Of a stretch of DNA of 44,888 nucleotides, positions 10,399 to 35,738 are shown piece after piece; positions within the stretch are counted from its first letter, which is position 1; every line of letters begins with the position of its first letter. The stretch is from a virus. Made by a program: the position numbers and the translations under genes. The stretch spans positions 1 to 44,888 of IMG/VR virus record IMGVR_UViG_3300035156_000094, one strand, 5' to 3'. The notes under the pieces were generated by a model. That model was not told where the DNA came from. It was given only the letters and a program-made list of their open reading frames with translations, and did not search any database.

Positions 10399-10409
10399 TC
10401 GCCCTCCTG

Positions 10410-21268: not shown

Positions 21269-22230
21269 CCCAGCCCCTCCACTACACGCCAAAGGCGATG
21301 GCGGACTTGCTCGCGCTCGCCGAGGCATCGCCGCCGGGCATGACGGCAGGGTTCCGCTATCTCGCCGACAAGCTCCGCCAAGCGCAGGTCTTCGTCCTCT
21401 CGGATCATGGGCAGCTGCTCGATCGGGCGAAGCCTCGGCCGCAGGTGCCGGGCGACGTGTTCCGCCCGCCGTTCCCGGTGGTCGCCTTGGAATACACCGC
21501 CTCGACTCGAGAGTGGGCGGACCCCTTCTATAACGGGTCGAAGTGCTCGCGCCGGATCGCCCTCGCTTGGGAGTGGTCAGACGATCTGCCGCCGATCCTG
21601 CGCGCGTTCCCCTGCGCCGACCTGGGCGCTGGGGTCGTGGTCGCAGCGCTCGCGTTCTATGACGAGCAGGACCATTGGCTGCCGGTTGCCGCCGCCATGC
21701 ACCTCGACTTTGAGGAAACTTGGAACGACGCGCCAGCGCCCTCGCCTTTCCGCGAGGCGATGATCAAGGCGGGCCGGATCTCCAAGGCGGTCGAGAAGGA
21801 ACCCGGCCTCGCCAGCTCGCCCATCGCGCTGATGCCGGAAGCGATCGAGGCGATAGCCGCGCGCATGGGCGCCGCCGCCACGATCGACGCGATCTGCGCC
21901 GACATGATGGACGAGGTAAACGCCTATACCGACCTCTGCTACGCGCTCGCGTGCGGCAACGTCGGCACCAGCCGCGTGACCGCGCCGCCGGCTCTGAACA
22001 AGAAGCGGATCAAGGCGGGCAAGCTGCCCCTTCGTGACTTCCACGTCCTCGAACTCGCGGGCGGAGGCGTCCTGCCCGGCGCCAGCGACCACGGGGGCGG
22101 CGATCGGGCTGCGCCTCGATCCCACCTGCGCCGCGGCCATATCCGCCGCCTGGGGCCGGAACGCATCACCTGGGTCAATTCGGCGATCGTCCGCGGTCGC
22201 GGCTTCATCGACAAGGTCTACGCCGCATGA
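21265..22230 (+). CDS. Hypothetical protein (321 aa)
   Basis: GTGA overlap at 21265-21268. It is the largest ORF of the early array. No motif recognised. Confidence 0.6.
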   Translation: MTQPLHYTPKAMADLLALAEASPPGMTAGFRYLADKLRQAQVFVLSDHGQLLDRAKPRPQVPGDVFRPPFPVVALEYTASTREWADPFYNGSKCSRRIALAWEWSDDLPPILRAFPCADLGAGVVVAALAFYDEQDHWLPVAAAMHLDFEETWNDAPAPSPFREAMIKAGRISKAVEKEPGLASSPIALMPEAIEAIAARMGAAATIDAICADMMDEVNAYTDLCYALACGNVGTSRVTAPPALNKKRIKAGKLPLRDFHVLELAGGGVLPGASDHGGGDRAAPRSHLRRGHIRRLGPERITWVNSAIVRGRGFIDKVYAA

Positions 22231-22520
22231 CGCCGCCGGATTATCTCGGCACCTGCGAGACGTGCGCATGGTGGACCCGCGAGCCCGAGCTGGCGAACGC
22301 ACTTCGCCGGCCGGACGGCTCCGCCAGCGATCTCGGCGTTTGTCAGGTCAATGCCCCTGTCGTGGTCGGCACCGGCGGCTTCCGCATGTCAGTGTTCCCC
22401 GAGGTTCGCGCCCACCGCTTTTGCAGCCGGTGGGAGCCCGAGGACGAGGGCGGCGATGGTGGTGACGGGGGCGGCGGCGAGGAAGTCACGAACGTCGTGC
22501 CGCTTCGAGGTGCAGCGTGA
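22227..22520 (+). CDS. Small Cys-containing protein (97 aa) with a Gly/Asp-rich tail
   Basis: ATGA overlap. Sequence CETCAWW...GVCQ...FCSRW. Confidence 0.5.
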   Translation: MTPPDYLGTCETCAWWTREPELANALRRPDGSASDLGVCQVNAPVVVGTGGFRMSVFPEVRAHRFCSRWEPEDEGGDGGDGGGGEEVTNVVPLRGAA

Positions 22521-22903
22521 GGATCGGGCCGGGACACCCCCCTGCGGTGCGGGATGCGCTTGCCGCCGCCGCTGCCAACCTCGACGCCGTCGAGGCGGAG
22601 TGGAAAGGCTCGGCAGGCCCATGCCATAATTGCGAGTTTGGATCTCGGAAGGGCATAAACGCCACCTATTGCAAGCATCCGGCGGCACGGCGGGCGCTGT
22701 TCGACCCGGTCAAAGATCAGCTAGTCTGGATCGAGAAAGAGCAGCGGGTCCTGCGCCGCGACGGCGAACTATGCGGGCCGAGTGGATCACTGTTCCGCCC
22801 GCTGCCGTTGCTGGTCGCTGTCCGCCGTTGGATCGCTGCGAACTGGTGGTGGATGATCTGGGTCGCTGTCTTGGCGCAAGCCGTTTGGTCGGCAGGGTCA
22901 TGA
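22517..22903 (+). CDS. Hypothetical protein with a C-terminal transmembrane segment (128 aa)
   Basis: GTGA overlap. The C-terminus LPLLVAVRRWIAANWWWMIWVAVLAQAVW is hydrophobic. Confidence 0.5.
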   Translation: MRIGPGHPPAVRDALAAAAANLDAVEAEWKGSAGPCHNCEFGSRKGINATYCKHPAARRALFDPVKDQLVWIEKEQRVLRRDGELCGPSGSLFRPLPLLVAVRRWIAANWWWMIWVAVLAQAVWSAGS

Positions 22904-23223
22904 TCGACCTGTTCCGCTATCCCGGAACACCGGGATCAAAGGACCGCGACACGTCGCACGCCGCCGCCGATCAGATCGCCGAAGCGGCACCGCAGCTGCG
23001 CGCCCGTGCGCTGGCGGTGGTCGAGCGATCGAACGGCATGACCGCCGACGAGGTCGCCGGCCGGCTGGGGATCTCGATCTTGAGCATCCGTCCGCGACTG
23101 ACCGAACTCGCCCGCCTGGGGAAGGTTCGCGACAGCGGCGTGCGGCGGAAGAACGTGAGCGGTCGCCGGGCGATCGTTTGGTCGCCGGTCTACCCGGCCA
23201 AGCTGAAGGGACAACGAACATGA
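22900..23223 (+). CDS. Winged-helix (MarR-like) DNA-binding protein (107 aa)
   Basis: ATGA overlap at 22900-22903. MTADEVAGRLGISILSIRPRLTELARLGKVRDSG is wHTH-like. Confidence 0.6.
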   Translation: MIDLFRYPGTPGSKDRDTSHAAADQIAEAAPQLRARALAVVERSNGMTADEVAGRLGISILSIRPRLTELARLGKVRDSGVRRKNVSGRRAIVWSPVYPAKLKGQRT

Positions 23224-23558
23224 CGCGCCGACTAATGATGCTCGCCGCCAGCTACGTGACGGTCGTGCTTCTAGCCGCGTTTGGCGTCTGCCTCGCCGAA
23301 GGTCGCTCGATCGGCGACGCTGTATGGTGGGCGGTCGTTACCGCGACGACCGTCGGATATGGCGACGTTTACCCGACGACCGCCGCCGGTCGGATCATCG
23401 CGGCGACGCTGATGCACGCCACGACCCTGATGCTCCTGCCGATCTTGACCGCCGAGATCGCCGCCAAGCTGATCGTGAACAGCGACGCCTTCACGCACGG
23501 CGAGCAGGAAGAAATCAAACAGCTGCTGCGCGACTTGGCCGCGAAGGTGAAGGCATGA
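23220..23558 (+). CDS. Minimal 2-TM KcsA-like potassium channel (112 aa)
   Basis: It carries the canonical K+ selectivity filter TATTVGYGD. The pore region [25 protein letters not shown] closely parallels KcsA [25 protein letters not shown]. Hydrophobic TM1 and TM2 flank it, and a short helical C-terminal tail follows. Confidence 0.85.
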   Translation: [112 protein letters not shown]

Positions 23559-23752
23559 GCACGCTATCGCCCTGGACGATCGCGGGGTGGCTGATCGTCG
23601 CGATCCTCGCGACGATGATGCTGGTGACGCCGATCATCGCGATCTTGATCATCCGGCAGCGTCGCAAGATGCTCGCCGACTTCGAGCGCCGTCGCGCGCA
23701 GATCCGGGACGAGATCGCACCCCTCAATCGCCGGTGGAGGTTCCGCCCATGA
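23555..23752 (+). CDS. Single-pass membrane protein (65 aa)
   Basis: ATGA overlap with the channel gene. TIAGWLIVAILATMMLVTPIIAILII is followed by a basic stretch. Confidence 0.55.
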   Translation: MSTLSPWTIAGWLIVAILATMMLVTPIIAILIIRQRRKMLADFERRRAQIRDEIAPLNRRWRFRP

Positions 23753-23949
23753 GCGCGATCGACCCGCTGCGCGAGCCGCAGCCGCCGCGCGAGGATCTGC
23801 CCGCATCCGTCCGAGCTATGGTGGAGGTATGGCAGGCGGCGGCGCTGGTCGCGGGCGACATCGCCCACGCCAAGCGCTCGATGTACCTCGCCTATGTCGC
23901 CGAGGGCTTCACCGAGGCGCAGGCGCTCGAACTGGCGAGGCACCTATGA
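23749..23949 (+). CDS. Hypothetical protein (66 aa)
   Basis: ATGA overlaps at both ends. Confidence 0.5.
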   Translation: MSAIDPLREPQPPREDLPASVRAMVEVWQAAALVAGDIAHAKRSMYLAYVAEGFTEAQALELARHL

Positions 23950-24146
23950 CGGCGGCGATCGACATGAAGGCGTTTCGCGGCGCCTTCCTGATCCACCAAT
24001 CGACCGCGCCGCGGGCTCGTCACCAGTCGTTCAGCGCCGCCGAGGCGGAAGCCGCCCGGCTGCTCGAAGCGAACCCCGACGCCAGTTTCATCATCAGCCA
24101 GGAGGTCGCGCGCGTGAAGCGTGGCCCGCAGGGAGCCCGATCGTGA
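23946..24146 (+). CDS. Hypothetical protein (66 aa)
   Basis: ATGA overlap upstream and GTGA overlap downstream. Confidence 0.5.
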   Translation: MTAAIDMKAFRGAFLIHQSTAPRARHQSFSAAEAEAARLLEANPDASFIISQEVARVKRGPQGARS

Positions 24147-24328
24147 CCTTTGTTCAAATGATCATAGCCGCATGGTTCACCAGCGAGATTGTCGCGCACG
24201 AAGACTGGGCGCATCGCGGCCTCGCCTTCGCAATCGCCGCCGTATGGTGGTGGATCACCTCCCGCGACGCCATCCCCGACGCGATCGAGCGCGGCCTCGA
24301 AAACTTCGCCCGGAAGCACCGCCGATGA
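24143..24328 (+). CDS. Small membrane protein (61 aa, two hydrophobic segments)
   Basis: GTGA overlap. Hydrophobic segments FVQMIIAAWFTSEIV and GLAFAIAAVWWWI. Confidence 0.5.
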   Translation: MTFVQMIIAAWFTSEIVAHEDWAHRGLAFAIAAVWWWITSRDAIPDAIERGLENFARKHRR

Positions 24329-24582
24329 CCAAGAAGACCGCCAAGCCGTCCGCCGCCGCCGCGCCGGTCGAGAAGCGAGCTCCATCTGTCGAGGCGGAGG
24401 ATCGGCTGCTGAAGATCGGCGAGGTCAAGGATCTCGTCGGCCTGGGCAAGACCATGATCTACCGCAAGGTGAAGGACGGCACCTTCCCCCAGCCGTGCAA
24501 GCCGGGTGGTGCCGCTACCCGGTGGAGCGAGCGCGAGGTCCGCGCTTGGCGCGATGAGGTGCTGGCGGCTCGCGCCGCCTAG
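24325..24582 (+). CDS. AlpA-family DNA-binding protein (excisionase / regulator-like)
   Basis: LLKIGEVKDLVGLGKTMIYRKVKDGTFPQP...RWSEREVRAW is the AlpA/Xis-type HTH pattern. It lies immediately next to the integrase gene. Confidence 0.8.
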   Translation: MTKKTAKPSAAAAPVEKRAPSVEAEDRLLKIGEVKDLVGLGKTMIYRKVKDGTFPQPCKPGGAATRWSEREVRAWRDEVLAARAA

Positions 24583-24584
24583 CC

Positions 24585-25934
24585 TCACGCGGCGAGCTGC
24601 TTTCGCGGAGCCTTCGGCGACGTGTCCGCCCAGCGGATCGGCTGCCCGATGTGGCTTTCGAGGGTCGGCAGATCGACGACGAGCAGGTCACCCCATGCCT
24701 GGGCGATCTCCCGCCGCCGGGGCATGTACGCCGCCCGGTTGTACGCGCCCTCGACCTTGTCCTTCGGCATATGCGCCAGCATCAGATCGATCACGGCCCG
24801 GTCGCCCTCTTGGCGGTCGGGCCGTTCGTTCATGATCGTCGAAAAGGCGGCGCGGAAGCCGTGCGGGACGTGCCGCTGATAGTAGCCGGCGCGGATCAGC
24901 AGCGCGCGCAGCGTGTTCTCGGAGATCGGCCGGTGGACGTGGCGCTCGCTCGGGAACATCAGGCGGTAGCCGCCGGTCAGCGGCTTCAGCGCGCGGATCA
25001 CGTCGACCGCATGGCTCGACAGCGGCACGACATGGTCGCCCTGTTCCTCGGCCTTGCGGTCCTGATCGCCCTTCATGCGCGCCGCCGGGATGCGCCAGAG
25101 CGGCGCGGGACCGTCGAGCCCCTCGATCTCGCTCCACTCGGCGTTCTGGATCTCGTTCGGCCGCACCGCCGTCAGCGCGAGCAGCCGCAGCGCGAACTTC
25201 GTCGCCGCCCGGCAGCGCTCGGCCTCGCAATCGCCGAGCATGGTACGCACCGCCGCCAGCTGGCGGTCGTGATCGTCGATCCGATCGATGATCGAGGGCT
25301 GTTTCTTCGACCGCGGCTTCTTCGGGAGCGCCTTGCCGAGGCTCGCCGCCGGGTCCGCCTTCGCGATACCAGTCGCGATACCATAGACGAATATGTCCGA
25401 GATCCGCTGGCGGATGCGGTGGGCCGTCTCGATCGCCCCGCGCTGCACGACCGCGTTGAGCAGCTCTAGCACCTTGGGCGACTCGATCGCGGTCATCGGC
25501 AGATCCCCGATCGACGGGAACACCGAGTTTTCCAGGCTGATCAGCACGTCGGCGCCGTGAACCGTCGACCACGTCGGCAAGCGCAGGGTATGCCACCGCC
25601 GCGCCACGATCTCGAAGGTGTTGTCGCTGGCGGTCGCGTTCGCCTTCAGGGCGACGCGTCGCTCGATCGCCGGGTCGCGACCGTCGCGCAGCAGATCCTT
25701 CGCCTCGTCGCGCCGCCGCCGAGCATCGAGCAGCGACAGCGATGGATAGGGGCCGAAGGTTAGGGTCTTCTGCGCTGGCTTGCCCGCCGCGTTCTTCCCG
25801 TAGGCGTAATTCATTCGCCAGATGCGGCCACCGGCCGGGGTGACGTGAAGGTAGAGCTGCCCTGCATCGACCAGCTTGTAGGCGGCGTCGCGGGGCTTTG
25901 CGGCTTTGATCTTGGCGTCTGTCAGCACGTCCAT
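24585..25934 (-). CDS. int: Tyrosine integrase, P4-type (DUF4102 N-terminal arm-binding domain)
   Basis: MDVLTDAKIKAAKPRDAAYKLVDAGQLYLHVTPAGGRIWRMNY is the typical P4-like N-terminus. The C-terminal catalytic region has HGFRAAFST and LAHMPKDKVEGAYNR (His/Arg/Tyr). An alternative ATG lies at 25946. The track ORF extends to 26036. Confidence 0.9.
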   Translation of the reverse strand: MDVLTDAKIKAAKPRDAAYKLVDAGQLYLHVTPAGGRIWRMNYAYGKNAAGKPAQKTLTFGPYPSLSLLDARRRRDEAKDLLRDGRDPAIERRVALKANATASDNTFEIVARRWHTLRLPTWSTVHGADVLISLENSVFPSIGDLPMTAIESPKVLELLNAVVQRGAIETAHRIRQRISDIFVYGIATGIAKADPAASLGKALPKKPRSKKQPSIIDRIDDHDRQLAAVRTMLGDCEAERCRAATKFALRLLALTAVRPNEIQNAEWSEIEGLDGPAPLWRIPAARMKGDQDRKAEEQGDHVVPLSSHAVDVIRALKPLTGGYRLMFPSERHVHRPISENTLRALLIRAGYYQRHVPHGFRAAFSTIMNERPDRQEGDRAVIDLMLAHMPKDKVEGAYNRAAYMPRRREIAQAWGDLLVVDLPTLESHIGQPIRWADTSPKAPRKQLAA

Positions 25935-25938
25935 CTCC

Positions 25939-26190
25939 GATACCATGCGGCGCCGGGCTCGATACCATGCGCCATACCATGTCATTCGGTGAACGCCTGC
26001 GAACATGTGCGGAACACCGTCCGCCGCATCAAGCACGAAAAGTGCCTGTTTACTAGGGGGAGTGAACCGTTACGGCCTTCTGCGTATGGTATGTTGGCGG
26101 AGCGGGAGCCCGTCCAATCAACCGGTTTCTGCGTTGAGATTGCCGGGTTTTTTCCGCGCCGCCGCCGATCATACCACGCAATATACCATG
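25939..26190. promoter_or_regulatory. Putative attP region with repeated ATACCA(T/C)G motifs (candidate arm-type sites)
   Basis: GATACCATGCG occurs at 25939 and 25961, and CATACCATG at 25973. An inverted copy (cataccatacgc) lies at 26082-26093, with ATACCACGCA at 26171 and ATACCATGCG at 26183. TTCTGCGT is repeated at 26078 and 26127, and a T6 run lies at 26148-26153. The roughly 300-bp gap next to int is non-coding and AT-richer. Confidence 0.5.
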
Positions 26191-26236
26191 CGCTTGATTT
26201 TTACCCCTGTTCGGGTCCCGATCCGGGATACGAACA

Positions 26237-26608
26237 CTACTCGGCGGCGGCAAGGTCGGAGCCTGCGCAGTCCAGGCTGATGCGCATGACGAGCCCAAGC
26301 GTGGCCCCCTCCATGTGGAGCCCCTTCACCCGCTCGACGATCACCTGGGCGGAATAGCCGCGGTCGAGCTTCGACGCGATCCAGCCGGATCGCTCCCGGC
26401 CAAGGTAGCCGACCTTCACCCCCCGGCTCGTCACGATCGCGACCGCGAGGTGATCGTGCGGGTTGTCCGGCTCGCGGACGAACTCAAGCCCGTCGCCCGG
26501 CATGCACTGGCGCAGCTCGTCCTGCCGGCTGCTGCCATCATCGTTCTCGTACCAACACCCGACAGCTGCGAGGCTGAAGTCATTCCATCCCAAGCGACTC
26601 GACCCCAT
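26237..26608 (-). CDS. Standalone HIRAN-domain protein (about 123 aa)
   Basis: GDGLEFVREPDNPHDHLAVAIVTSRGVKVGYLGRERSGWIASKLDRG matches the HIRAN pattern (REPxNPxDxxAI...G.lGYl). The start is uncertain: ATG 26608 has no clear SD, and the track start at 26722 would overlap the divergent gene. Confidence 0.65.
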   Translation of the reverse strand: MGSSRLGWNDFSLAAVGCWYENDDGSSRQDELRQCMPGDGLEFVREPDNPHDHLAVAIVTSRGVKVGYLGRERSGWIASKLDRGYSAQVIVERVKGLHMEGATLGLVMRISLDCAGSDLAAAE

Positions 26609-26670
26609 GTAGAACAAACGCGGAACATGGCGTACGGATGAGTCGACCGAGTCGGCAAGAGGGATTGAGA

Positions 26671-26907
26671 ATGACAGGTGATCAGGAACGGTACGTCGCC
26701 ACGCGGCCGGCGTTCGGCGCATGGCTGCTACAGCAGAGCACCGGCGGGTTCGTCGGCGAGCTGATCGCCGCCGGCCGCGCCGACCGCGCCTTCCCTAAGA
26801 GCGGGGATGCCGAGGCGGTGCGGAAGCGGCTTCGCGAGATGCAGGCGCCGGGCGAGTATTTTGACGCGGTGGACGAGGCGGAGGCCGACTGGCGTGCGGC
26901 TGAATAG
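26671..26907 (+). CDS. YozE/SAM-like-fold small protein (78 aa)
   Basis: SD agaggga lies 6 nt before ATG 26671. FGAWLLQQSTGGFVGELIAAGRADRAFPKSGD resembles the YozE-type pattern. Confidence 0.5.
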   Translation: MTGDQERYVATRPAFGAWLLQQSTGGFVGELIAAGRADRAFPKSGDAEAVRKRLREMQAPGEYFDAVDEAEADWRAAE

Positions 26908-27247
26908 GCGCGACCCGGTCGACCTGGGCAGCGGGCTCGTCCGTGAATACTTCCCGGAGCGCACCAGCCATCGTGCGCCACGACAGGAGCCAAAGCCGGC
27001 GGAGCATCGCGGCGCGATCGACAAGCGCGAGGCGGACCCCCGCAAGGCGCTGGCGTCGCACGTCGAGCCCGGCCGGGTTGGCTATGCAGCGCTGTCCCGC
27101 ATGCTCGGGCGTGCCGACCACTACCTCTGGCGCTTCGTGCGTCACGGCTCGCCGCGGGCGCTACAGCCCGACGATCACCGCCGCTTGGCCGACTTCTTCG
27201 GTGTCGACGAGCGCGCGCTAGGCGTGCGCGATCTGTGGCATGGCTGA
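26894..27247 (+). CDS. XRE-type HTH regulator (about 117 aa)
   Basis: GYAALSRMLGRADHYLWRFVRHGSPRALQPDDHRRLADFFGV is Cro/C1-type HTH-like. The start is uncertain: GTG 26894 is in frame. Confidence 0.5.
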   Translation: MRLNRRDPVDLGSGLVREYFPERTSHRAPRQEPKPAEHRGAIDKREADPRKALASHVEPGRVGYAALSRMLGRADHYLWRFVRHGSPRALQPDDHRRLADFFGVDERALGVRDLWHG

Positions 27248-27443
27248 GCGCTGCCGCCTATGCACCGCGAACGATCGCGACGGCGTGATCGAGCAGCTGG
27301 CGGCGGACCTATGGAATAGCCGCCGACATGGCACTCTGGACGACCACCCATGGGAGCAGGCTGGCGACTATTGGCAGCGCATGTTCCGCGAGCTGGCAGT
27401 GACCGCGGTCGGCTCTCTCGCGCACGATGAGCATCCGCGATGA
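27240..27443 (+). CDS. Hypothetical protein (67 aa)
   Basis: ORF in a co-directional array. It overlaps its neighbours by a few nt. Confidence 0.45.
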   Translation: MAERCRLCTANDRDGVIEQLAADLWNSRRHGTLDDHPWEQAGDYWQRMFRELAVTAVGSLAHDEHPR

Positions 27444-27694
27444 GGCGCGTCACCCGAGCCGAGATGCGAACGAAGCTGGCTGTCGCTCTAACAGTCCGCA
27501 AGCAACACACCCGCCGCGGGCTGGCGCTGATCACCGAGCACGAGATCAACGACGTGGTCGACGATCTGCTGAACCGCATCAAGGGGCGTCCCGAAAGCGA
27601 GGCGGTGATCCTAGAGCCGGATCTGGCTGGTCCTGCGCACGCGCCTTGGCGGGGAAGATGGGATATAGACGAACCCCACCCTTTCCCTAAGTAG
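27440..27694 (+). CDS. Hypothetical protein (84 aa)
   Basis: ATGA overlap with the preceding ORF. Confidence 0.45.
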   Translation: MRRVTRAEMRTKLAVALTVRKQHTRRGLALITEHEINDVVDDLLNRIKGRPESEAVILEPDLAGPAHAPWRGRWDIDEPHPFPK

Positions 27695-27699
27695 CGCGC

Positions 27700-27954
27700 A
27701 TGTCCGACGACGATGAACTCCCCGGAGACAGTCCGTGGCGCCTTGGCAAGGTCGTGCTCGACGACATGCAGGTATCGCAGGATGCAGCGGACTTCCTCGC
27801 AATCCACGGCACCGACAGCGTCGAACTGTGGACGGAGCTAAAGTCGATATTCACGAACATGCCGCCGGGCCGGATCGACCTGATGCTTCATTGGGAGGCC
27901 GTTGCCGATCGCATCCAAGAGATGGCGGCGGCGCAGCAGAAGCCGAGGAACTGA
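27700..27954 (+). CDS. Hypothetical acidic protein (84 aa)
   Basis: ATG 27700. Its stop is 1 nt from the convergent stop at 27956. Confidence 0.5.
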   Translation: MSDDDELPGDSPWRLGKVVLDDMQVSQDAADFLAIHGTDSVELWTELKSIFTNMPPGRIDLMLHWEAVADRIQEMAAAQQKPRN

Positions 27955-27955
27955 C

Positions 27956-28819
27956 CTAGTCGGGTAGGTCGATCACGTCGTGGAAAGCCATGATCCGGTA
28001 AGCGACCGGGCGGTCGGATAGCATCTCGACGTTCACGTCAACGTCGAACGCCTTCTTGTAGACGTTGTCGTCGGCCTCGGCGATCTCATGGCGGATGCGT
28101 TCTTCTGCCAGGGTCGAAGCGTAGACGATCGGCAGGGACCGAGGGTGGATAGCTTCAATCTTGACCTGCTCGCCTGACCTCTTGCCCGCCTTGGCATGCG
28201 CGACGTTCGTGCGGGTGAAGACCATGAGCACCCGCGGGTGGTCCGCGTCGGTAGTCTTTTCAAGCGCGAGCTTATGGTCGAGGATGCGTGCCTCGGCCTG
28301 CCGCGCCTCCGTTGTGTCAAACGCAAACGCGACCTTTAGATCCTTGTCCTCAAACACCGACATCGAGAGCCGCGCATCGTTGTCGGTCGCGACCGCTGTC
28401 AGGGTCTTAAGGTAGTCGTTTAGATCGCTCTTCTTCGCAGTTTCGTCTCGCTGCCCTCGCTTGAAATACTTCTTCAGACCGAGGTTCTCGACGAACTTGG
28501 CCAGATCATTTGCGTGCTTCACGCCCGCCATTGCCGCGCCGAGAAGTGGCGGTCCTGCGACCATGAAATAAGGCACCAGCGTCGCGATGATTGAGCCGGC
28601 CCGAACCTCTTGCACATAGAAGCGAGCGTCGCCCCGGTCGTCGGGATGCTCGCCGTTGGCGAACCGCTCGAACTGGTTGCCGATCCCGACGAACAGGGCG
28701 ATGAAGCTGCTCAACTCGACCGGAGTTTCCGTCTCCAATTTGAGGACGATGTGCTGACCTGCCGGGTGATCCATAGGCGCGGCATATGGATAGAAGGCGG
28801 AACTGAAAGCAAGCCGCAT
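27956..28819 (-). CDS. Unknown 287-aa protein paired with the methyltransferase (candidate restriction / defence effector)
   Basis: SD gaagg precedes ATG 28819, 16 nt after the MTase stop on the same strand. G+C is lower (hand-sampled lines about 52-58%). No family recognised. A possible D-X9-E-D-K segment lies in NDARLSMSVFEDKDLK. Confidence 0.6.
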   Translation of the reverse strand: MRLAFSSAFYPYAAPMDHPAGQHIVLKLETETPVELSSFIALFVGIGNQFERFANGEHPDDRGDARFYVQEVRAGSIIATLVPYFMVAGPPLLGAAMAGVKHANDLAKFVENLGLKKYFKRGQRDETAKKSDLNDYLKTLTAVATDNDARLSMSVFEDKDLKVAFAFDTTEARQAEARILDHKLALEKTTDADHPRVLMVFTRTNVAHAKAGKRSGEQVKIEAIHPRSLPIVYASTLAEERIRHEIAEADDNVYKKAFDVDVNVEMLSDRPVAYRIMAFHDVIDLPD

Positions 28820-28834
28820 GTTCCGCCTTCCCTA

Positions 28835-29638
28835 TCAGTTGCGGACGATCAGCTCGCCCGCGCGCAGCCCGCCGCCGCTCGGCGTGCCGATCGTATAGGT
28901 CGTTTCCACCTCGTCGAGCTGGAACCGGCCGAACACCTCGCGGGCGCCGGGCGTGTCATTGATCGACAGGATGAAGCATCCGGTGATCCCGCCCAGCTGG
29001 TCGGCAAGCTGCGCGAAGTCGGCACGCGAGAACGTCCCGGCGCCGTAGTCCTCCTCGCAGCCCCAATAGGGCGGATCGAGGTAGAACAGCGTCGTCGGGC
29101 TGTCATAGCGCCGGATCAGATCGGCGTAGGGCAAACGCTCGATCTTCACGCCCGCAAGGCGGTCGTGAATTTCCTCGAGCATCGGCGCCAGCTTGGTCAC
29201 GTCGAACCGTGCAGGCGAACGCCAGTCAACGCCAAAGGTGCGCCCGTCGACCTTGCCCCCGAATGTCAGGCGCTGAAGGTAGAGGAACCGGGCGGCGCGT
29301 TCGAGGTCGGTCAGCGTGTCGGGATCGACCGCCACCAGGCGCTCGAACTCGGCCCGGCTGGTCAGCTGCCACTTCAGCATATCCATGAACGCCTGATAGT
29401 GGCGCTGAAGGATGCGGAAGAGGGTCGTCACGTCTCGGGAAAGATCGTTGATCACCTCGGCACGTGGCCGGCGGGATCGGCGCAGGAACACCCCTCCCAT
29501 GCCGACGAAGGGCTCGACATAGTTGTCGTGCGGGGTGGCCTCGATCAGGGCGCAGAGGCGGCGCGCGAGATTGCGCTTGCCGCCGATGTAGGGCGCAGCC
29601 GGGGATACCGGCCGAACCTCAGTTTGAGTCGACTCCAT
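28835..29638 (-). CDS. N6-adenine DNA methyltransferase, D12 (Dam-like) class
   Basis: APYIGGKRNLA..., EPFVGMGGVF (AdoMet motif I) and FYLDPPYW (catalytic DPPY) are present. Confidence 0.9.
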   Translation of the reverse strand: MESTQTEVRPVSPAAPYIGGKRNLARRLCALIEATPHDNYVEPFVGMGGVFLRRSRRPRAEVINDLSRDVTTLFRILQRHYQAFMDMLKWQLTSRAEFERLVAVDPDTLTDLERAARFLYLQRLTFGGKVDGRTFGVDWRSPARFDVTKLAPMLEEIHDRLAGVKIERLPYADLIRRYDSPTTLFYLDPPYWGCEEDYGAGTFSRADFAQLADQLGGITGCFILSINDTPGAREVFGRFQLDEVETTYTIGTPSGGGLRAGELIVRN

Positions 29639-29872
29639 AGCTTTCAGGTCTCAATAGGACCCCGCCTGTTGCGCAGGTGCGGGGCGTTAGCGGCTGGCCA
29701 GCCGCGCGTAACGGGGTCCTCCCCCGTTGGTTGCTGGGTAGCCGCCCAGCACCCCCGCTCGGCCTATCGGCCGGCGGACGTGTTCGAGATGAGGATTAAA
29801 CGATCAGAGCCGGGCGGACCATCATCGCGCTAGGCAAGGCTTCGGCGACCACCGCGGAAGCTATCGTGTCGC

Positions 29873-30961
29873 CTAGGTGATGTTCGCGCTGGCGCCGATC
29901 GCGGAGGTCCGTCGCTTTCGGATGAGCTTGGACAGGTAATCGCGAACCGGTTCGTCAATCATCAGCGCCAGCCATGCCAAGGCCGAGACTGCCGTCAGCA
30001 CGACAAGAGCAATCAAAGCCGCAAGTACGGGCTCGGAGGCGCGCCATTGATGTGCCGCCGCCGCGACTATCGGAAGGTGCAAGACGTAGACCGGATAGGA
30101 AAGCCGCCCAGAGAGATCACAGGCCAGCGACAGCTTCGGGCCGGTAGCGATTTGCGACCCTGCCAGAACAAGTGCGGGGAAGGCGACGAAGGCCGCTGCA
30201 AGGTGCAGCATTCCGTTTAGCCCCGGCAGCGACGGAAGCATGAAGAAGCCGAACAGCGCGATTGCAAGGCCGACTGCAAGCCCGTTCGATGTCAGCAGCG
30301 GCAGCTTAGCCACACGATGGAAACGCCATGTCAGCACGCCGGCGCCGAACAGCGCGGCTGTTCGCAGGACACCCAGCAGCCAAGTGCCATTCGCAAAGCC
30401 GAGATGAAGATCGTGACGCTGCACTCCGATCAGCACGTACAGCCCAACCATAATCAGCACCGCCGGAAGCAGGACTTTAGTCTTCAGGCTCGGCGAGATT
30501 AAGCCGTAAATCACGTTGATCAGCATCTCGCTCGACAGCGACCATAGTGGAGGGTTGACCGGGAACAGCAGCGTCGACTGGTCGCCTTCGTAGGGGATGA
30601 GCAGGAGCGCCATAAGCAGGAGCATGGCGACGTTCGCCACGGGGCTCGTAAGCGTCCGGTCGAGTCCGGCCAGCCAGATCGCGAGCCAGACCATAAGGCC
30701 GATGACGATCATGGGGTAGAGGCGGATCACACGCTGGACCACGAAATCAGGGACGCTCAGCGTGCTTGCAAGGCGCTTCTCATAAGCGGACGCAATGACG
30801 AAGCCGCTAAGAACAAAGAAGAAATCAACGGCGAGATAGCCGTGCGCGGCAATGCCAGAGGCGTTCTCACTGCCGAAGTGATAGAGAACGACCGCTGCGG
30901 CGGCAACGCCGCGAAGCCCGTCGAGCACGACGTATCTATTCGCCATTCCGTTCATTCGCAT
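29873..30961 (-). CDS. Acyltransferase family 3 integral membrane protein (OafA/Oac-like O-acetyltransferase)
   Basis: NRYVVLDGLRGVAAAAVVLYHF...GYLAVDFFFVLSGFVI is the acyltransferase_3 signature. Multiple TM segments. G+C is lower than in neighbouring genes. Confidence 0.85.
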   Translation of the reverse strand: MRMNGMANRYVVLDGLRGVAAAAVVLYHFGSENASGIAAHGYLAVDFFFVLSGFVIASAYEKRLASTLSVPDFVVQRVIRLYPMIVIGLMVWLAIWLAGLDRTLTSPVANVAMLLLMALLLIPYEGDQSTLLFPVNPPLWSLSSEMLINVIYGLISPSLKTKVLLPAVLIMVGLYVLIGVQRHDLHLGFANGTWLLGVLRTAALFGAGVLTWRFHRVAKLPLLTSNGLAVGLAIALFGFFMLPSLPGLNGMLHLAAAFVAFPALVLAGSQIATGPKLSLACDLSGRLSYPVYVLHLPIVAAAAHQWRASEPVLAALIALVVLTAVSALAWLALMIDEPVRDYLSKLIRKRRTSAIGASANIT

Positions 30962-31119
30962 GCCCCCACGCTCAACTCATGGTGTAGCCCGCGAAACCTC
31001 CGGTGCGCAATGCCGAAGCCCGCGCGATTTCTAGCGCCGCCAGACACGCCGAAGCCGGAACAAGGTTTCCCCCGCCCCGGCTTAGATTTCGTTCAAGTAG
31101 GTACGGCTTTTCGCGAGGT

Positions 31120-33138
31120 TCATTCCTTCTTCATCGCGTCGAGCACGGCGCGACGCTTCGGCGTCTCGCCGATCGGCTGCCCCGCATACTCACGGATGCC
31201 CCAGGCGCCATACTGACTGATCCCGCCGGTGGCCGAGTAGACGGTGAACAGTTCAGGGCTGATCGCCTTCCAGTCAGCGAGGTAGCGGTCGTAGATCTCG
31301 CCCATGCGCTTGTCGCGCTGCATGGCCGTGTAGACCTCATTCTGCGCTGCCATGTTGTTCGGAATAATGTGCTGCCCGCCTTCATAGGCGATCAGCCGCT
31401 TGCCGTACTTATCCGCCGCCGCCTTGTTCTCGCGGACCTTCGCGATGCTGTTCACGCGGTTGGCTTCGAGCTTGACGAACAGGCGGTCGAGATCCGCCAA
31501 GGTGGGCTTGTCGTCCGGCGCGTTGAAGAAGCTGTGCCCGAAGTATGGCGCGATCGCGAGCGCGTCGACATAATCGGCCAGGCCCGGGAACGCCAAGATT
31601 GTGCGGGCCGACCAGCTGTTGTCGCTCTGGCTGGCGACGACGCGGACCAGGCGCGACGGGTCGGCCTTGAACACGTCGGTAAGGATCTTGTGGAACCAAA
31701 GCGACTTCTGCGCCGCGCGCAGCGGGTTGTTCGAGTAATAGTCGGTCGACAGCGGAGGCGTCTGCTTCGACCCCTCATCCGAGGCCTGTCGCGCTACTGG
31801 AAAAGCGTAATTCCAGATCTCGTTTGACAGCTCGAAATAGGCGCGGTGCCCCTTCGCCAGCCGGTCGCGGACCAGCTCGCCCATCGCGCGAACGTAAGCC
31901 TCGTCGGCATTGTAGGCGAGGGTAAACCAGGCATCCGTGCCGGCCGCGTTGGCGAGGTCGACCTGCGTCTCGATCGGGATCCCATCGGCCCCGCCGCGGG
32001 CCGGCGTCGATCGGTTATCGAGCGTCACGCTGGCAGGGTTGCCGTTCGTGTTCGACCAGTCGAGGAAGCGCAGCAGCTTGTACGCCGAAAGCTCGTCGAC
32101 CAGCGTCTTCTCGAACTGGCCGACCGCCTGTGACCCGGCCTCGCGGCAATCGAGATCGCCGAACGGCTTGGCGGCGTTCAGGCCCGAGAGGTAGAACAGG
32201 ATCTGAGGATAGCCGCCCTTGGTGATATCGAAGCCGGCCGGGACGGTGAACGACCCGCCACTTGCGGAGATCGAGCCTCGCGCCAACCCGTCGACACGGA
32301 TCGACCCGCTACCCGACCAGGTGCAGGAGATCGTCACCGATTGACCGCCCCAGACCTGACGCGGCGCGTTGAGCGTGAGCGCTTGGCCATCGACGATCGG
32401 AAAGCCGGTGGTGCCGAGCTTCGCCGCCGCGGTCGAGCCCCAGCCGGCAGAGGGGTCCTTCCACCCGCCCGACTGCTGCGCGAGGTTGGCGAAGGTCCGC
32501 TCGGAATTGTAATAGGTGCTGCCGGTCACGTTGATGCCGATCGTCATCGACTTGACCGCGGCGACTGGTGTCGGCGTTGCCGTCGGTACCGGCGTCGGCG
32601 TCGGCGTCGGGGTGGGTGAAACCACGACAGCAGGCGCCGCCGCAGTGCCCGCCGGGATCGACGCATTCAGCGAGTAGGAGCACGTCTTGGCGGTACCGGT
32701 GATCGGATCGGTGAAAACCTTGTTGGCGCACAGCACCGCGGTCGACGTGGTCAGATAGCGGAACTTGTCGGCAGCGCCGTACCGCACCAGGGCCAGACCC
32801 GGGACAGTGCAGACTGCATCCTCTTTCGAGCAGGCGACCCAGCTGATGGCCGCTGGCGTGGGCGTCGGCGCCGGAACGGGCGTCGGGGCTGGCGTAAGGG
32901 CCTTTACCCGCGCCTGCCGATCCGCAACTGCCTTCGACGCCGCGGCGCCCGCCTTGGTGAAGCACGCGATCTGCGTGGTGAGCTTGGCGATGCTGTTCGT
33001 GTCGGCCTTGGCGATCGTCGCTGTGCCGCAGCCGGAAACGGTTTGGCCGATCGACGGCCCGCTTGAAAGCAGTGCGGGCGCGAGCGCAGCCGCGGCGAAC
33101 AGAGCGGGCGGAGCGAACCTGAGCAAGAGCCGCCTCAC
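31120..33138 (-). CDS. Secreted clan GH-A-like glycoside hydrolase with Pro/Thr linkers (672 aa)
   Basis: The N-terminal signal peptide is MRRLLLRFAPPALFAAAALAPALL. There are two PT-rich linkers and a Cys-containing small domain. The catalytic-type motifs are YFELSNEIWN and LIAYEGGQH. The GTG start forms a GTGA overlap with the upstream gene. Confidence 0.7.
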   Translation of the reverse strand: MRRLLLRFAPPALFAAAALAPALLSSGPSIGQTVSGCGTATIAKADTNSIAKLTTQIACFTKAGAAASKAVADRQARVKALTPAPTPVPAPTPTPAAISWVACSKEDAVCTVPGLALVRYGAADKFRYLTTSTAVLCANKVFTDPITGTAKTCSYSLNASIPAGTAAAPAVVVSPTPTPTPTPVPTATPTPVAAVKSMTIGINVTGSTYYNSERTFANLAQQSGGWKDPSAGWGSTAAAKLGTTGFPIVDGQALTLNAPRQVWGGQSVTISCTWSGSGSIRVDGLARGSISASGGSFTVPAGFDITKGGYPQILFYLSGLNAAKPFGDLDCREAGSQAVGQFEKTLVDELSAYKLLRFLDWSNTNGNPASVTLDNRSTPARGGADGIPIETQVDLANAAGTDAWFTLAYNADEAYVRAMGELVRDRLAKGHRAYFELSNEIWNYAFPVARQASDEGSKQTPPLSTDYYSNNPLRAAQKSLWFHKILTDVFKADPSRLVRVVASQSDNSWSARTILAFPGLADYVDALAIAPYFGHSFFNAPDDKPTLADLDRLFVKLEANRVNSIAKVRENKAAADKYGKRLIAYEGGQHIIPNNMAAQNEVYTAMQRDKRMGEIYDRYLADWKAISPELFTVYSATGGISQYGAWGIREYAGQPIGETPKRRAVLDAMKKE

Positions 33139-33356
33139 TTCACCTTCTCCGCAGCGGCGAGCTTGGCATCGAGGCGATCGGCCGCAGCCAGGGCGCCGGC
33201 GTGCGCGGCTTCGAGGTCGGCGCGGTTGCCTTCGCTCAGGACGTGCTTGGCGCTATCGGCGGCGCGCTTCACCTCGGCGATCATCTCGACGCCTTGGACG
33301 ACGATGCCCGGCAGGCCGAGCTTCGCCGCCATTTCGATTAGCTTCAGGATTTCCAT
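33135..33356 (-). CDS. Small helical hypothetical protein (73 aa)
   Basis: ATG 33356 lies 1 nt after the lipoprotein stop. No motif recognised. Confidence 0.5.
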   Translation of the reverse strand: MEILKLIEMAAKLGLPGIVVQGVEMIAEVKRAADSAKHVLSEGNRADLEAAHAGALAAADRLDAKLAAAEKVK

Positions 33357-33357
33357 G

Positions 33358-33717
33358 TCAGTTGCTCCCCTTGAGTGCGTTGAGGCTGTCGGCGAAGCCG
33401 AACAGCGCGGCAGCGGCGCGTGCCTTCTCCGCCAAGTCGGCGGTCGCCTTTCCCTTCACTATCGCCTTCCGTGCCTCGGCGTTCCAGCCGCGCACCTTGG
33501 TCGCGGTGGCGCCGTGGATCATGCCGGCATCGACCGCCCGGCCGACGTTGTTCGCTGCCGCCGTATAGACGATCTCGGCAGCGGCGAAGCCGCGCTCGCC
33601 CGACAGGATGACTGAGCCGGCCTTGGCGATCGGCGCCGAGGATGGCGGACCGGCGACCGGGGTGGTGGTGCAGGACGCCAAGGCGAGCGCCGCCGTGGCG
33701 AGGATCATTCGCATCAT
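33358..33717 (-). CDS. Lipoprotein (119 aa)
   Basis: MMRMILATAALALASC has a signal peptide plus lipobox L-A-S-C. SD ggaga precedes ATG 33717. The upstream part of the track ORF is discounted. Confidence 0.7.
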   Translation of the reverse strand: MMRMILATAALALASCTTTPVAGPPSSAPIAKAGSVILSGERGFAAAEIVYTAAANNVGRAVDAGMIHGATATKVRGWNAEARKAIVKGKATADLAEKARAAAALFGFADSLNALKGSN

Positions 33718-33782
33718 CAGGTATCTCCGAAAGTTCAGTGAGTGAGGTAGATCGCGAGAGCGGCCAGCCGGGCCGCGGCGCA

Positions 33783-35738
33783 TCAAGCGGCTTCGAGTGC
33801 CTGCTTCAGCGCGACGTTGGCATTGTAGAGGGCGGTGCGCTGGGCAGCGCTGAGCCCGGCGCCGATGAAGACGAACCCGACCTCCCATGCGCCATAGAAG
33901 CCGTTGCCGTAGCCGAAGAGTGTCAGGGGCGTCGTACCGGGGGCAACGCCGGAGCTCTGCGTATTGGTCGCAACCTGGACACCATTGCGGTCGATCTGGA
34001 CGCCTGTTGCCGAGGAGGTGCGGATTGCGAGCAGAAATCCGACGGCGCTGGCGACCGTCGCCGTCGCATTCGCATAGTCGTTCAAGCCAGCGTTGACCAA
34101 CCCGCCGTTGCGGGGGTTTACGCCGGCATTGCCACCGATGCTGATTGCCGCCGGACCCTGCTGCGTCTCGGCGAAGTTCCAGACACCGATGCTTGCCGAG
34201 TTGCGGACGAACTTGTTGCCCGTTCGACTGCCCGCCATGCCGGTCAGGTATCCCGGCGTTCCGCCCGGCGCGGCATACCGGAAGCCCGCCGAGGTGAAGT
34301 CCGGCGCACCTTGCTCGACCAGATCACCGTAGGCGCCGAGAATGTTGAGCTTGGCATCGGCTCGGTTCGTCTCCCGGTACATCGGGATGATCACGTCGGC
34401 GAGCGCGTAGACCCCCGACGACTTCAGCGACCCGACGTAGGTATCGAACGCCTGCTTGTAGGCGTAGGGCGTGCTGCTCCGCCGGGCGACGTAGGTTGCG
34501 GCCTCCGAGTTGGTGAAGGCGTAGGCCGCGACGACCGTGATCGTGAACGTCTTGCTTGCGGTGAGACCGCGCGCATCGACTGAGTTCACCACCGCCGAGA
34601 GCGTGCTGGGCGAGCCTTGTGCAGGGATCGAGAGATTGCTTCCGACCAGAGCGATCCCGGCCGAGGCGGTGCCAAGCGCCAAGGTAGCAGGATGTGCCGT
34701 CTTCATTACCAGGGTCAGCGCGGTGCCGACCTCGACGGTCTGGGCGGCTGTTGTCGTGATCGTCGGCAGCCCGAAGGCGGCTGTGAAGGCCGCGGCCGCA
34801 GTCGGCTTGCTACCGTCCGAGAGCCGGCAGCTGATACCCGCGGTCGAGTCCCAGTAGCCGTGGTAGACGGCGCCGCTGCTGATGAGAAAGTCGCGCATCA
34901 GCGTGATGATCGGGGCATAGGCATCCGAGGTGATGCCCCATTCGGAGATCGCGAACGGCTTGCTATGCGTCGTCGCGAAGTTCGCGGCGTACTGCATCCC
35001 ATAGGCAAAACCGTTGTAGCGGTAGCCCCATGCAATAGTCGGGTCGGCGCTGTCGTAGGTATTGTTGAAATAGACATCCATGCCGACGACATCGACATAC
35101 GTATCGCCGGGATAAGCTGTGGCGGGGTCGAACTCCGCGCCTGAATTGTTGATGCACCACTCAAATTTGAAGCGGCTGCTTATCCCGCGCATGAGGGTGA
35201 CGACGCGCTGGAATGCCGCGATATAGCTCGCCGCGTTGCCGACAGCGCCCCACGGGAAGAAGTTGGCGCCGCCGGCGCCGTTGAACTCCCAGCCCAAGCG
35301 AATGTGGATTATGCCGCTCGGTTGCAGCGTCATCAGCCTGTTCGCTACATAGGTGAAATCGGCGTCGTTCGATCCGCCGGCAACGTCGGCGAGCGGCGTC
35401 GTCGGATTACCGCCCGGTCCGACCGTCAGCGGTAGCGCGTACATTGCACGGACACCGAAGGCAGTGACCTGACTGTCGGCGCTAGACCTCAGATCGGCCC
35501 AGGACCCATAGCTGAGAAATGAGATCCACCGGTCCGCCGGTGCGCCAAGCATCGTCTCGAACGCCGCGATGTGGCCGGTGCCGCTTTCCCCGTTTTCATA
35601 GGGATAGACGCCCATCATCTGCGTTTGGCCAGAGCGAAGATTATCTGTAGCTGGCGTCGGGGCCGGGGTAGGGATTCCCCCTGCGCCTACCCGCCCACGA
35701 ACAGCGGACTCGGTGATCGAAAGGCCGAGACCGATCAT
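33783..35738 (-). CDS. Fibre / spike protein with a GH26-like glycanase domain and a LamG-like C-terminus (651 aa)
   Basis: IRLGWEFNGAGGANFFPWG resembles GH26 R..HE.NG.WFWWG, and KPFAISEWG resembles the nucleophile motif. The C-terminal third is beta-rich. The start overlaps the stop of the spike base gene. Confidence 0.65.
   Translation of the reverse strand: MIGLGLSITESAVRGRVGAGGIPTPAPTPATDNLRSGQTQMMGVYPYENGESGTGHIAAFETMLGAPADRWISFLSYGSWADLRSSADSQVTAFGVRAMYALPLTVGPGGNPTTPLADVAGGSNDADFTYVANRLMTLQPSGIIHIRLGWEFNGAGGANFFPWGAVGNAASYIAAFQRVVTLMRGISSRFKFEWCINNSGAEFDPATAYPGDTYVDVVGMDVYFNNTYDSADPTIAWGYRYNGFAYGMQYAANFATTHSKPFAISEWGITSDAYAPIITLMRDFLISSGAVYHGYWDSTAGISCRLSDGSKPTAAAAFTAAFGLPTITTTAAQTVEVGTALTLVMKTAHPATLALGTASAGIALVGSNLSIPAQGSPSTLSAVVNSVDARGLTASKTFTITVVAAYAFTNSEAATYVARRSSTPYAYKQAFDTYVGSLKSSGVYALADVIIPMYRETNRADAKLNILGAYGDLVEQGAPDFTSAGFRYAAPGGTPGYLTGMAGSRTGNKFVRNSASIGVWNFAETQQGPAAISIGGNAGVNPRNGGLVNAGLNDYANATATVASAVGFLLAIRTSSATGVQIDRNGVQVATNTQSSGVAPGTTPLTLFGYGNGFYGAWEVGFVFIGAGLSAAQRTALYNANVALKQALEAA

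Follow-up and report, generated by a model that had tools for sequence, protein, structure and literature searches.

A methylase and a 287-aa gene beside the prophage integrase

The window, by which we mean the complete stretch of 44,888 nucleotides that was analysed, covers a prophage with its structural and regulatory genes at 6.7-19 kb and has a mean G+C content of 65.9%. The tyrosine integrase gene (24585..26036, minus strand; Arm-DNA-bind_3, Phage_int_M and Phage_integrase domains) lies near an accessory block, in which a 161-aa HIRAN-domain protein (26237..26722, minus strand; PF08797, E 4.3e-12) also partly matches the PADLOC candidate PDC-M03B (E 8.8e-9) and has a 67% identical homolog in the related prophage L086, where the methylase and the 287-aa gene described below are retained as well. 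Four small overlapping plus-strand ORFs fill positions 26807-27954 and were not assigned to any family in Pfam and PHROG searches, and within the same interval orf67 (27240-27443) has a 66% homolog in L086. The last of the four, a convergent 84-aa ORF (27700..27954, plus strand), ends one base from the stop codon of the 287-aa gene (27956..28819, minus strand), which confirms the one-base separation described in the earlier sequence-only reading of this DNA. Upstream of the 287-aa gene follow a spacer (28820..28834, minus strand), the methylase gene (28835..29638, minus strand) and an accessory gene for an Acyltransferase_3 membrane protein (29873..30961, minus strand; PF01757, E 3.7e-26) with a low G+C content of 60.5%.

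The methylase stop codon and Met1 of the 287-aa ORF are separated by about 16 nt with a Shine-Dalgarno-like GGAAGG, Met1 being preceded by GGAAGGCGGAAC and then ATG, and both ORFs, their coordinates, shared orientation, short gap and the separate Shine-Dalgarno sequence were verified as first described. The near-invariant start of the family is Met16 (28774), which is also the JGI gene call and gives a protein of 272 aa. The block of Shine-Dalgarno sequence and Met1 codon is kept in three members of the sub-lineage (the window, L086 and L003) with two different upstream genes, and the Met1 start is thus plausible in the window. When positions 27300-30100 were scanned for promoters and terminators, no promoter-like site was found, and the single terminator-like site (27509-27521, minus strand) lies outside both genes and does not exceed the shuffled controls, while none was found near the methylase or the 287-aa gene. 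With a gap of 16 nt, a Shine-Dalgarno sequence of its own and no intervening terminator, the 287-aa gene is probably co-transcribed with the methylase gene. A patch of lower G+C content had been described here, and it is confined to the 287-aa gene with the small ORFs next to it: at 59.5%, the 287-aa gene has the lowest value of all called genes in the window, but the original hand estimate of 52-58% was slightly too low, and the methylase gene, at 65.8%, lies outside the patch. The difference from both the methylase gene and the window mean bears out the earlier suggestion that the 287-aa gene was acquired separately.

The methylase is a D12-class (alpha-type, Dam-like) N6-adenine DNA methyltransferase of 267 aa and of the solitary phage type, which matches PF02086 (MethyltransfD12) over profile positions 1-253 of 253 (E 8.5e-21, 75.3 bits against a cut-off of 22). 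The SAM-binding motif I, FVGMGG (residues 44-49; 29492..29509, minus strand), stands N-terminal to the catalytic motif IV, DPPY (residues 188-191; 29066..29077, minus strand), and this order of FxGxG and DPPY, together with the Pfam score, places the enzyme in the D12 class, to which the sequence-only reading had assigned it from the same two motifs. It also matches phrog_56 (E 4.9e-75) and the PADLOC model MTase_II (E 1.1e-54), while the scores against the equivalog models for GATC-specific Dam stayed below their thresholds (TIGR00571, 65.5 against 114.85 bits; NF008152, 27.2 against 441). Homologs were found in 216 phage records; the neighbour differs in each of the closest four (60-66% identity), and is never an annotated restriction enzyme or a member of the 287-aa family. 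The enzyme is an ordinary solitary methylase of a kind common in temperate phages, which had been raised earlier as the alternative reading, and which the phrog_56 match, the many phage homologs and their variable neighbours now support.

The PHROG 9226 family

The 287-aa protein had been called unrecognisable, a fair description in that it matched no family in Pfam, NCBIfam or PADLOC; it does belong to PHROG 9226, a family of unknown function. The match is full-length (E 8.6e-25, residues 25-285 on profile positions 15-260 of 261), and clustering at 50% identity leaves at least 1,212 representatives of the family, those listed being single-domain proteins. The defence models of PADLOC-DB v2 gave 0 families at E <= 0.1 for the 287-aa protein, and 81 diverse members scanned against Pfam at permissive settings shared no recurrent family. 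The PDB contains 0 sequence relatives, also when searched with a profile, and related predicted structures in BFVD (best E 1.1e-20) are likewise uncharacterised, as is a GenBank member with 26.6% identity, the hypothetical protein QEA10882.1 of Bordetella phage PHB09. These results, together with the low G+C content, agree with the fallback of the sequence-only reading and support the view of the 287-aa protein as a genuine unknown that was acquired separately and lies in the accessory region by the prophage integrase.

The predicted structures point to a soluble alpha+beta protein. Two AlphaFold (AF2) models for the family (pLDDT 81.8 and 87.4) were compared with the PDB using Foldseek, a check named when the endonuclease was first proposed, and gave no match at E <= 1e-3, and there was no restriction endonuclease structure among the 50 matches listed for each search. 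The top PDB match of both models is a phage SAM lyase (E 1.7e-3 and 2e-2), which we did not accept as the fold of the 287-aa protein, as the TM score of about 0.2-0.41 and rmsd of 7.5-9 A fall below the significance threshold. Conservation across the 81 diverse members is good only at D261, H280, N252, S235 and position 217 (an acidic residue), all within the C-terminal domain as judged from the sequence. The PD-(D/E)XK-like spacing noticed earlier (D-X9-E-D-K) is present as a string but is not conserved: the lysine is a glycine in 25 of 31 relatives and, among these, is peculiar to the 287-aa protein, while the first aspartate is kept in 13/31, and the motif was therefore rejected. A possible transmembrane segment at residues 77-95 (Kyte-Doolittle 1.65) was also dismissed as a family feature, since distant members have charged residues there.

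Transposons and other settings of the family

Full-length relatives of the 287-aa protein were collected from 86 loci, and in about a quarter of these the family gene comes first among the passengers of an IS1595-family transposon. The ends of these elements were recognised by comparing the upstream regions across loci, and were not detected in a repeat search. Inverted repeats of ~25 nt, starting with GGC(A/C)TTATGTA, bracket the family gene in 15 loci, and clean 8-bp target duplications can be read in 10/13 elements examined (L018, L037, L038, L041, L045, L049, L059, L063, L065 and L068), for example GAAATAGT in L049, GAAAACTC in L059, GATATTTA in L045 and AGACTTTT in L041. These elements are probably of the ISNwi1 type within IS1595, with ends of the form GGnnATTAT, a consensus that was reportedly given by Siguier, Gagnevin and Chandler in 2009 (cited in PMC8101967). 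[quoted passage not shown] Within the transposons the family gene always adjoins the left inverted repeat, with conserved upstream motifs, and is accompanied by a 145-aa protein and by a small helix-turn-helix-like DUF6471 protein, the latter within 300 nt of the family gene in 24 of the 86 loci. A gene of ~320 aa two positions downstream of relatives had appeared as a family 'paralog', but this was an artefact of single-linkage clustering, and Pfam and inspection identified it as the IS1595 transposase. Three mini-elements (L020, 1050 bp; L041, 1118 bp; L045, 1207 bp) contain an intact family gene without the transposase, and at 1.05-1.2 kb they have essentially no cargo beyond it. Literature searches gave no paper mentioning DUF6471 and nothing useful on passenger genes of ISNwi1.

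The copy in the window lies outside any element of this type: positions 21000-36000 contain no motif resembling the inverted repeat at up to 5 mismatches, and there is no match to the transposase or to DUF6471 anywhere in the window. The small convergent ORFs were also considered as divergent DUF6471 proteins and rejected (hhalign probability 0.05-2.5%). Other relatives are found in a range of phage settings, i.e. beside baseplate genes (L085), between the head protease and the repressor (L089), after an antiterminator (L096) and before BrnT/BrnA in Bordetella phage PHB09, as well as amid unrelated genes in the chromosome of Sphingomonas sp. KC8.

The relation between the two genes

A methylase homolog is located within 6 kb of the family member in only three of the 86 loci, namely the window, the syntenic prophage L086 and L035, and within 100 nt only in the window and L086. 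L086 keeps the gene order of methylase, 287-aa gene, orf67 and HIRAN protein at 61-67% identity, and the tight layout of methylase and 287-aa gene is retained with a gap of 16-17 nt at only 61-66% protein identity, while the two 84-aa ORFs of the window are absent. In the third locus, L035, the methylase homolog (61%) is encoded about 1 kb from the family member and on the opposite strand. With the L086 layout kept at this level of divergence and a methylase about 1 kb away in L035, some lineage-specific coupling of the two genes may exist. Among the 150 immediate neighbours of family members DUF6471 (18) is the only clearly recurrent Pfam family, and neither a methylase nor a nuclease family is found among the 25 most frequent. 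There was also no clear enrichment of defence genes at these positions, with scattered matches of at most 2/150 for any one model.

We consider it likely, with a probability of roughly three in four, that the methylase and the 287-aa gene are independent accessory genes, which have become chance neighbours in the integrase-proximal cargo of a sphingomonad-type prophage. The methylase would then modify the DNA of the phage and the lysogen, and by inference shield the phage from restriction, whereas the 287-aa family would be self-contained mobile cargo, travelling as first passenger of IS1595 elements, with next to nothing else in mini-transposons, and in phages as a moron whose position varies. 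Since the family moves as autonomous cargo, its protein would act without a dedicated partner and would not be lethal alone, and the 16-nt packing in the window would be a local arrangement common to one related prophage and not a conserved functional coupling. A stand-alone function benefiting the host or lysogen, for instance phage exclusion, is possible but tentative, with the defence-type role being a guess from context. More speculatively, PHROG 9226 might be a new effector that works on its own and has an alpha+beta fold not seen before, most plausibly acting in single-gene anti-phage defence or exclusion, and spread through the Alphaproteobacteria by prophages and by IS1595-type transposons, including the gene-only mini-transposons.

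The main proposal of the sequence-only reading was a cryptic type II restriction-modification or methylation-guarded toxin pair, in which the 287-aa protein attacks DNA that lacks methylation, as an endonuclease or a toxin, and the methylase protects the lysogen while addicting it to the prophage. The co-oriented genes with their 16-nt gap, separate Shine-Dalgarno sequence and lack of a terminator would suit such a pair, as would a length of 287 aa, which is typical of type II endonucleases, the recurrence of the arrangement in L086 and the notorious sequence diversity of restriction endonucleases. The proposal nevertheless did not survive the comparison, and we regard it as extremely improbable: the linkage is confined to 2-3 of the 86 loci, the nearest relatives of the methylase occur as solitary enzymes among variable neighbours, the two genes are unlike in G+C content (59.5% vs 65.8%), and the 287-aa protein has no nuclease family, conserved nuclease motif or nuclease fold. 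The family gene is moreover solitary in chromosomes and transposes essentially alone in the mini-elements, which would hardly be expected of an endonuclease or toxin dependent on the adjacent methylase. We conclude that the 287-aa protein is not a restriction endonuclease, and the pair should no longer be treated as a candidate for a restriction-modification or addiction module. On the structural models a new nuclease or toxin fold stays conceivable, since the predicted fold has no known analogue, and in a bolder variant the protein could in principle be a solitary endonuclease, with protection coming from a ubiquitous host methylase encoded elsewhere, such as CcrM.

Three further explanations concern the company in which the gene is found. 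The 287-aa protein may serve its carrier element instead of the host, for example by binding DNA, by controlling transposition or lysogeny, or by keeping out competing elements, and its constant position by the left inverted repeat with conserved upstream motifs, the helix-turn-helix-like DUF6471 and 145-aa companions, and the small number of strictly conserved polar residues, as in a binding protein, are in line with this; we nevertheless think it unlikely, as mini-elements retain the gene and lose the transposase, a sign that the gene itself is under selection, the family also occurs in phages (including the window) and chromosomes without IS1595 components, and no DNA-binding fold was recognised in the two models. 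More doubtful is a counter-defence module in which an anti-restriction or anti-defence factor acts alongside the methylase and helps the phage evade host immunity. The gene does adjoin a protective methylase, the family is phage-associated, and SAM lyase, the top fold match of both models, is an anti-restriction enzyme; but that match is weak, a SAM lyase would deprive the neighbouring methylase of its cofactor, about a quarter of the members are cargo of chromosomal IS1595 transposons, where anti-defence gains little, and there is no conserved tie to methylases. The odds are poorer still for a single defence or DNA-transaction module running from the HIRAN protein through the small ORFs and the 287-aa protein to the methylase, despite the shared gene order in L086 and the partial PDC-M03B match of the HIRAN protein, as the latter is limited to the generic HIRAN domain, the two 84-aa ORFs are missing from L086, and the family has neither a HIRAN homolog nor, L035 apart, a methylase homolog beside it in the other loci. 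With only two instances, both in related prophages, the synteny is explained by common descent.

This leaves a family of more than 1,000 sequence clusters without a domain entry, structure or function, which is yet maintained intact on phages, on IS1595 transposons and, as sole cargo, on mini-transposons. Genes maintained in this manner are usually under direct selection for a benefit to the host or the element, and PHROG 9226 is therefore a reasonable and inexpensive choice for screening in Alphaproteobacteria for defence or exclusion, while its elements provide a clear example of a cargo-carrying insertion sequence.

Compared with known systems, the window resembles a type II restriction-modification locus in having an adenine methylase and a co-oriented, near-contiguous ORF of endonuclease-like size on a mobile element, but differs from it in that the methylase linkage is missing in 83 of the 86 loci, and that the second gene moves and persists alone without a nuclease family, motif or fold. 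The methylase itself is like the orphan phage D12 enzymes of phrog_56, such as p66 of Sinorhizobium phage phi2LM21 and PhiKM1_320 of Komagataeibacter phage phiKM1, with which it shares the domain, the FxGxG and DPPY motifs at 60-66% identity, and a location in an accessory region with variable neighbours and without a cognate endonuclease; in E. coli, Phi2LM21_p66, which is 64% identical to it, did not protect against any restriction enzyme tested (PMC5537653). Nothing sets the 287-aa protein apart from PHROG 9226, and as that family has no function, Pfam entry or solved structure, membership is mechanistically uninformative. Its transposon-borne relatives correspond to passenger-carrying insertion sequences of the IS1595 family in transposase, ~25-nt inverted repeats and 8-bp duplications, whereas the copy in the window shares none of inverted repeat, transposase and DUF6471. 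It also differs from known single-gene defence cargo in having no PADLOC model match and no clear enrichment of neighbouring defence genes. In general character the gene resembles prophage morons and other single-gene accessory or defence cargo, given a G+C content low for the carrier element, varied insertion positions among phages, an often lone orientation and a location near the integrase.

The accessory block and its methylase

The window is a prophage-bearing contig of 44.9 kb with a high G+C content (65.9%), in which PHROGs searches identified the major head protein (6723-8096), portal (9091-10413), large terminase (10410-12224), an antiterminator-like gene (13849-14535), a helicase (15615-18167) and a repressor (18410-18982), and a tyrosine integrase is located at 24585-26036. 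Just past the integrase is an accessory block comprising a HIRAN-domain gene (26237-26722, minus strand; PF08797, E 4.3e-12), four small ORFs, the 287-aa ORF (27956-28819, minus strand), the methylase gene (28835-29638, minus strand) and a membrane acyltransferase gene of the Acyl_transf_3 type (29873-30961, minus strand), the latter with a G+C content of 60.5%, low like that of the 287-aa gene. Such surface-polysaccharide-modifying genes are frequent prophage morons, and a second Acyl_transf_3 gene (L002, 2990-3994) was seen near the homolog of the 287-aa gene in Sphingomonas sp. KC8. The HIRAN protein also partially matched the PADLOC candidate PDC-M03B (E 8.8e-9), in its HIRAN part only. 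The four small ORFs (26807-27954, plus strand; 146, 67, 84 and 84 aa) overlap in an operon-like manner, converge on the 287-aa gene and have GC3 of the coding type; no Pfam or PHROG family and no DUF6471 kinship were detected for them, and orf67 is the only one with a counterpart in L086, a related syntenic prophage. Further along, a large Thr/Pro/Ala-rich protein of 672 aa without a Pfam match (31120-33138, minus strand) adjoins a GH26-domain protein (33783-35738, minus strand; PF02156, E 8.7e-10), and both are probably host genes connected with polysaccharides, which would mark where the chromosome adjoins the prophage end.

The methylase has the D12-class N6-adenine methyltransferase features ascribed to it in the sequence-only reading (PF02086, E 8.5e-21; FVGMGG at residues 44-49, DPPY at 188-191), and matches phrog_56 (E 4.9e-75) as well as PADLOC type II methylase models, while scoring under the Dam equivalog cut-offs. 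Homologs were found by tblastn in 216 phage records, the closest (60-66% identity) being in phiKM1, POA1180, phi2LM21 and Mwe-Yong1; the neighbours differ in each of these four phages and include neither an annotated restriction enzyme nor any relative of the 287-aa protein. When Decewicz et al. cloned the phi2LM21 enzyme (Phi2LM21_p66, 64% identity to the window methylase), it protected against no enzyme of their panel (PMC5537653). The methylase is thus of the solitary type that is typical of phages.

The 287-aa gene and its protein family

The layout proposed from sequence alone was confirmed: the 287-aa ORF starts 16 nt past the methylase stop and is preceded by GGAAGG, its stop is one base from that of the convergent 84-aa ORF, and its G+C content (59.5%) is the lowest among the window genes, making it compositionally distinct from the neighbouring methylase (65.8%). 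Given the 16-nt gap, and as a scan around both genes gave no promoter-like and no nearby terminator-like sites, they are probably co-transcribed in the window, which looks like local packing. Nearly all family members start at the equivalent of Met16 (position 28774), which is also the JGI gene call; Met1 is plausible as the start in the window, since the SD-ATG(Met1) block is kept in three sub-lineage members with two different upstream genes. Across the relatives at loci L005-L084, the 90 nt preceding the ATG equivalent to Met16 (-90 to -1) contain a conserved TA(T/C) exactly 12 nt before the start and GTGACAA(ATG) about 30 nt before it; this pattern could reflect a promoter serving a leaderless mRNA, or else a short extension of the N-terminus in which a Tyr is conserved.

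The 287-aa protein had no match in Pfam, NCBIfam or PADLOC, and no PDB sequence relative by single-sequence or profile search, and it matched PHROG 9226 (annotated function: unknown) from end to end. It is a large family: a word-indexed search gave 253 clusters, and an exhaustive profile search (E <= 1e-3) gave 1,212 representatives clustered at 50% identity, of which none of the best 150 listed exceeds about 340 aa or carries a fused domain. Relatives are overwhelmingly alphaproteobacterial (Sphingomonadales, Rhizobiales, Rhodobacterales and Caulobacterales), with a few members from Bordetella and phages. Two AlphaFold models, the second from a deeper alignment (pLDDT 81.8 and 87.4, pTM 0.62 and 0.71), concur in showing an alpha+beta protein that is soluble throughout and built from beta-hairpin and helix modules. 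With neither model did Foldseek find a PDB structure at E <= 1e-3; the matches listed (50 per search) included phage SAM lyase (TM 0.2-0.4) and generic alpha+beta (ferredoxin-like) domains and no restriction endonuclease, and matches in a viral structure library were uncharacterised phage proteins only (best E 1.1e-20). The D-X9-E-D-K spacing, noted in the sequence-only reading as a weak PD-(D/E)XK-like possibility, is not a family feature, its Lys being Gly in 25/31 relatives. The well-kept polar positions among 81 diverse members (D261 98%, H280 86%, N252 84%, S235 78%, and an acidic residue at position 217 in 94%) are all within the C-terminal domain.

Linkage and mobility of the family gene

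Loci with relatives were fetched from one-genome-per-species contigs (80), viral contigs (13) and a few other sources, with some redundancy, and linkage was counted over 86 loci in which the family member is full-length, the window being one of them. A homolog of the window methylase was present within 6 kb in 3/86 loci and within 100 nt in 2/86. The second adjacent case is L086, which has the whole block in common with the window (identities of 66% for the methylase, 61% for the 287-aa gene, 66% for orf67 and 67% for the HIRAN protein), and its adjacency is synteny by descent; in the third (L035) the methylase homolog is about 1 kb downstream of the family gene on the opposite strand. Among 150 immediate neighbours, DUF6471 (18 members) was the only clearly recurrent Pfam family, no methylase or nuclease family was among the 25 most frequent, the remainder were unrelated housekeeping genes, and a PADLOC scan gave scattered hits only. 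The methylase and the 287-aa gene are therefore not a conserved pair.

Upstream regions from many genera share a motif, TATGTA(T/G)CAA(A/G)CGCACCAAG, 50-100 nt 5' of the family gene, with its reverse complement downstream. Extended, these motifs form inverted repeats, each about 25 nt long with GGC(A/C)TTATGTA as first bases, bordered by 8-bp direct target duplications (read for ten elements); in these loci, relatives of the 287-aa gene are the first passenger in IS1595-family transposons. Full elements (3-6 kb) have the order left repeat, family gene (+), DUF6471 (-), IS1595-type transposase (+; PF12762 and PF12760), variable genes, a 145-aa protein (-) and right repeat; examples, with approximate ends, are L013 (5896-9499), L018 (2282-6225), L049 (5934-9204), L059 (1793-5332) and L065 (5887-10340). 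DUF6471 is within 300 nt of the family gene in 24/86 loci; 23/86 have the transposase within 1.5 kb, and 15/86 have both inverted repeats. The protein of about 145 aa at the right end (L012 9967-10401 and L013 8998-9432, both minus strand, and 11 further loci) has no Pfam match; its N-terminal part is coiled-coil-like and its C-terminal part, by eye, winged-helix-like. Three independent mini-elements (1.05-1.2 kb, approximate ends) lack the transposase and carry the intact family gene and essentially no other gene: L020 (1050 bp, 3302-4361), L041/L042 (1118 bp, L041 5896-7023) and L045 (1207 bp, 5891-7107, with an additional 70-aa ORF), with perfect 8-bp duplications in L041 and L045.

The window copy lies outside any such transposon, and among phages the family gene occupies at least four different places. 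In Bordetella phage PHB09, the only GenBank phage member, it is located (7977-8774, 26.6% identity) upstream of the terminase gene, with replication genes on one side and a BrnT/BrnA toxin-antitoxin pair on the other, a classic moron position. The copy in Sphingomonas sp. KC8 stands alone amid chromosomal genes. The family is autonomous, widely mobile and single-domain, without nuclease features.

Possible roles

Because the family gene is transposed with essentially no other gene and also persists on its own, we infer that it is not lethal in itself and does not depend on a dedicated protector, which speaks against its encoding a restriction endonuclease or a toxin guarded by methylation. The restriction-modification or defence pair suggested in the sequence-only reading is hence unsupported, with neither conserved linkage nor nuclease features and a gene that is mobile alone, and despite the adjacency in the window we consider it the least likely of the explanations weighed here. 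The fallback of that reading, an orphan methylase beside a true unknown, is supported: the methylase is an ordinary solitary phage enzyme, and the 287-aa gene a neighbour from a catalogued but uncharacterised family. For the latter we tentatively favour a stand-alone role benefiting the lysogen or host, for instance phage exclusion (probability about 0.3), because cargo of chromosomal transposons and prophage morons is usually host-beneficial. Maintenance of the carrying element, suggested by the first-passenger position, is doubtful; an anti-defence role is less likely still, followed by membership of a larger module with the HIRAN protein, improbable even with the block shared by L086.

With an ordinary methylase and a member of a catalogued, uncharacterised family, the finding is of modest weight, and the most noteworthy by-product is the behaviour of the family as an IS1595 passenger. 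The element ends presumably resemble those of the ISNwi1 subgroup. In their 8-bp duplication and Zn-finger plus DDE transposase, the elements carrying the family gene are like the IS1595 family as described (PMC8101967).
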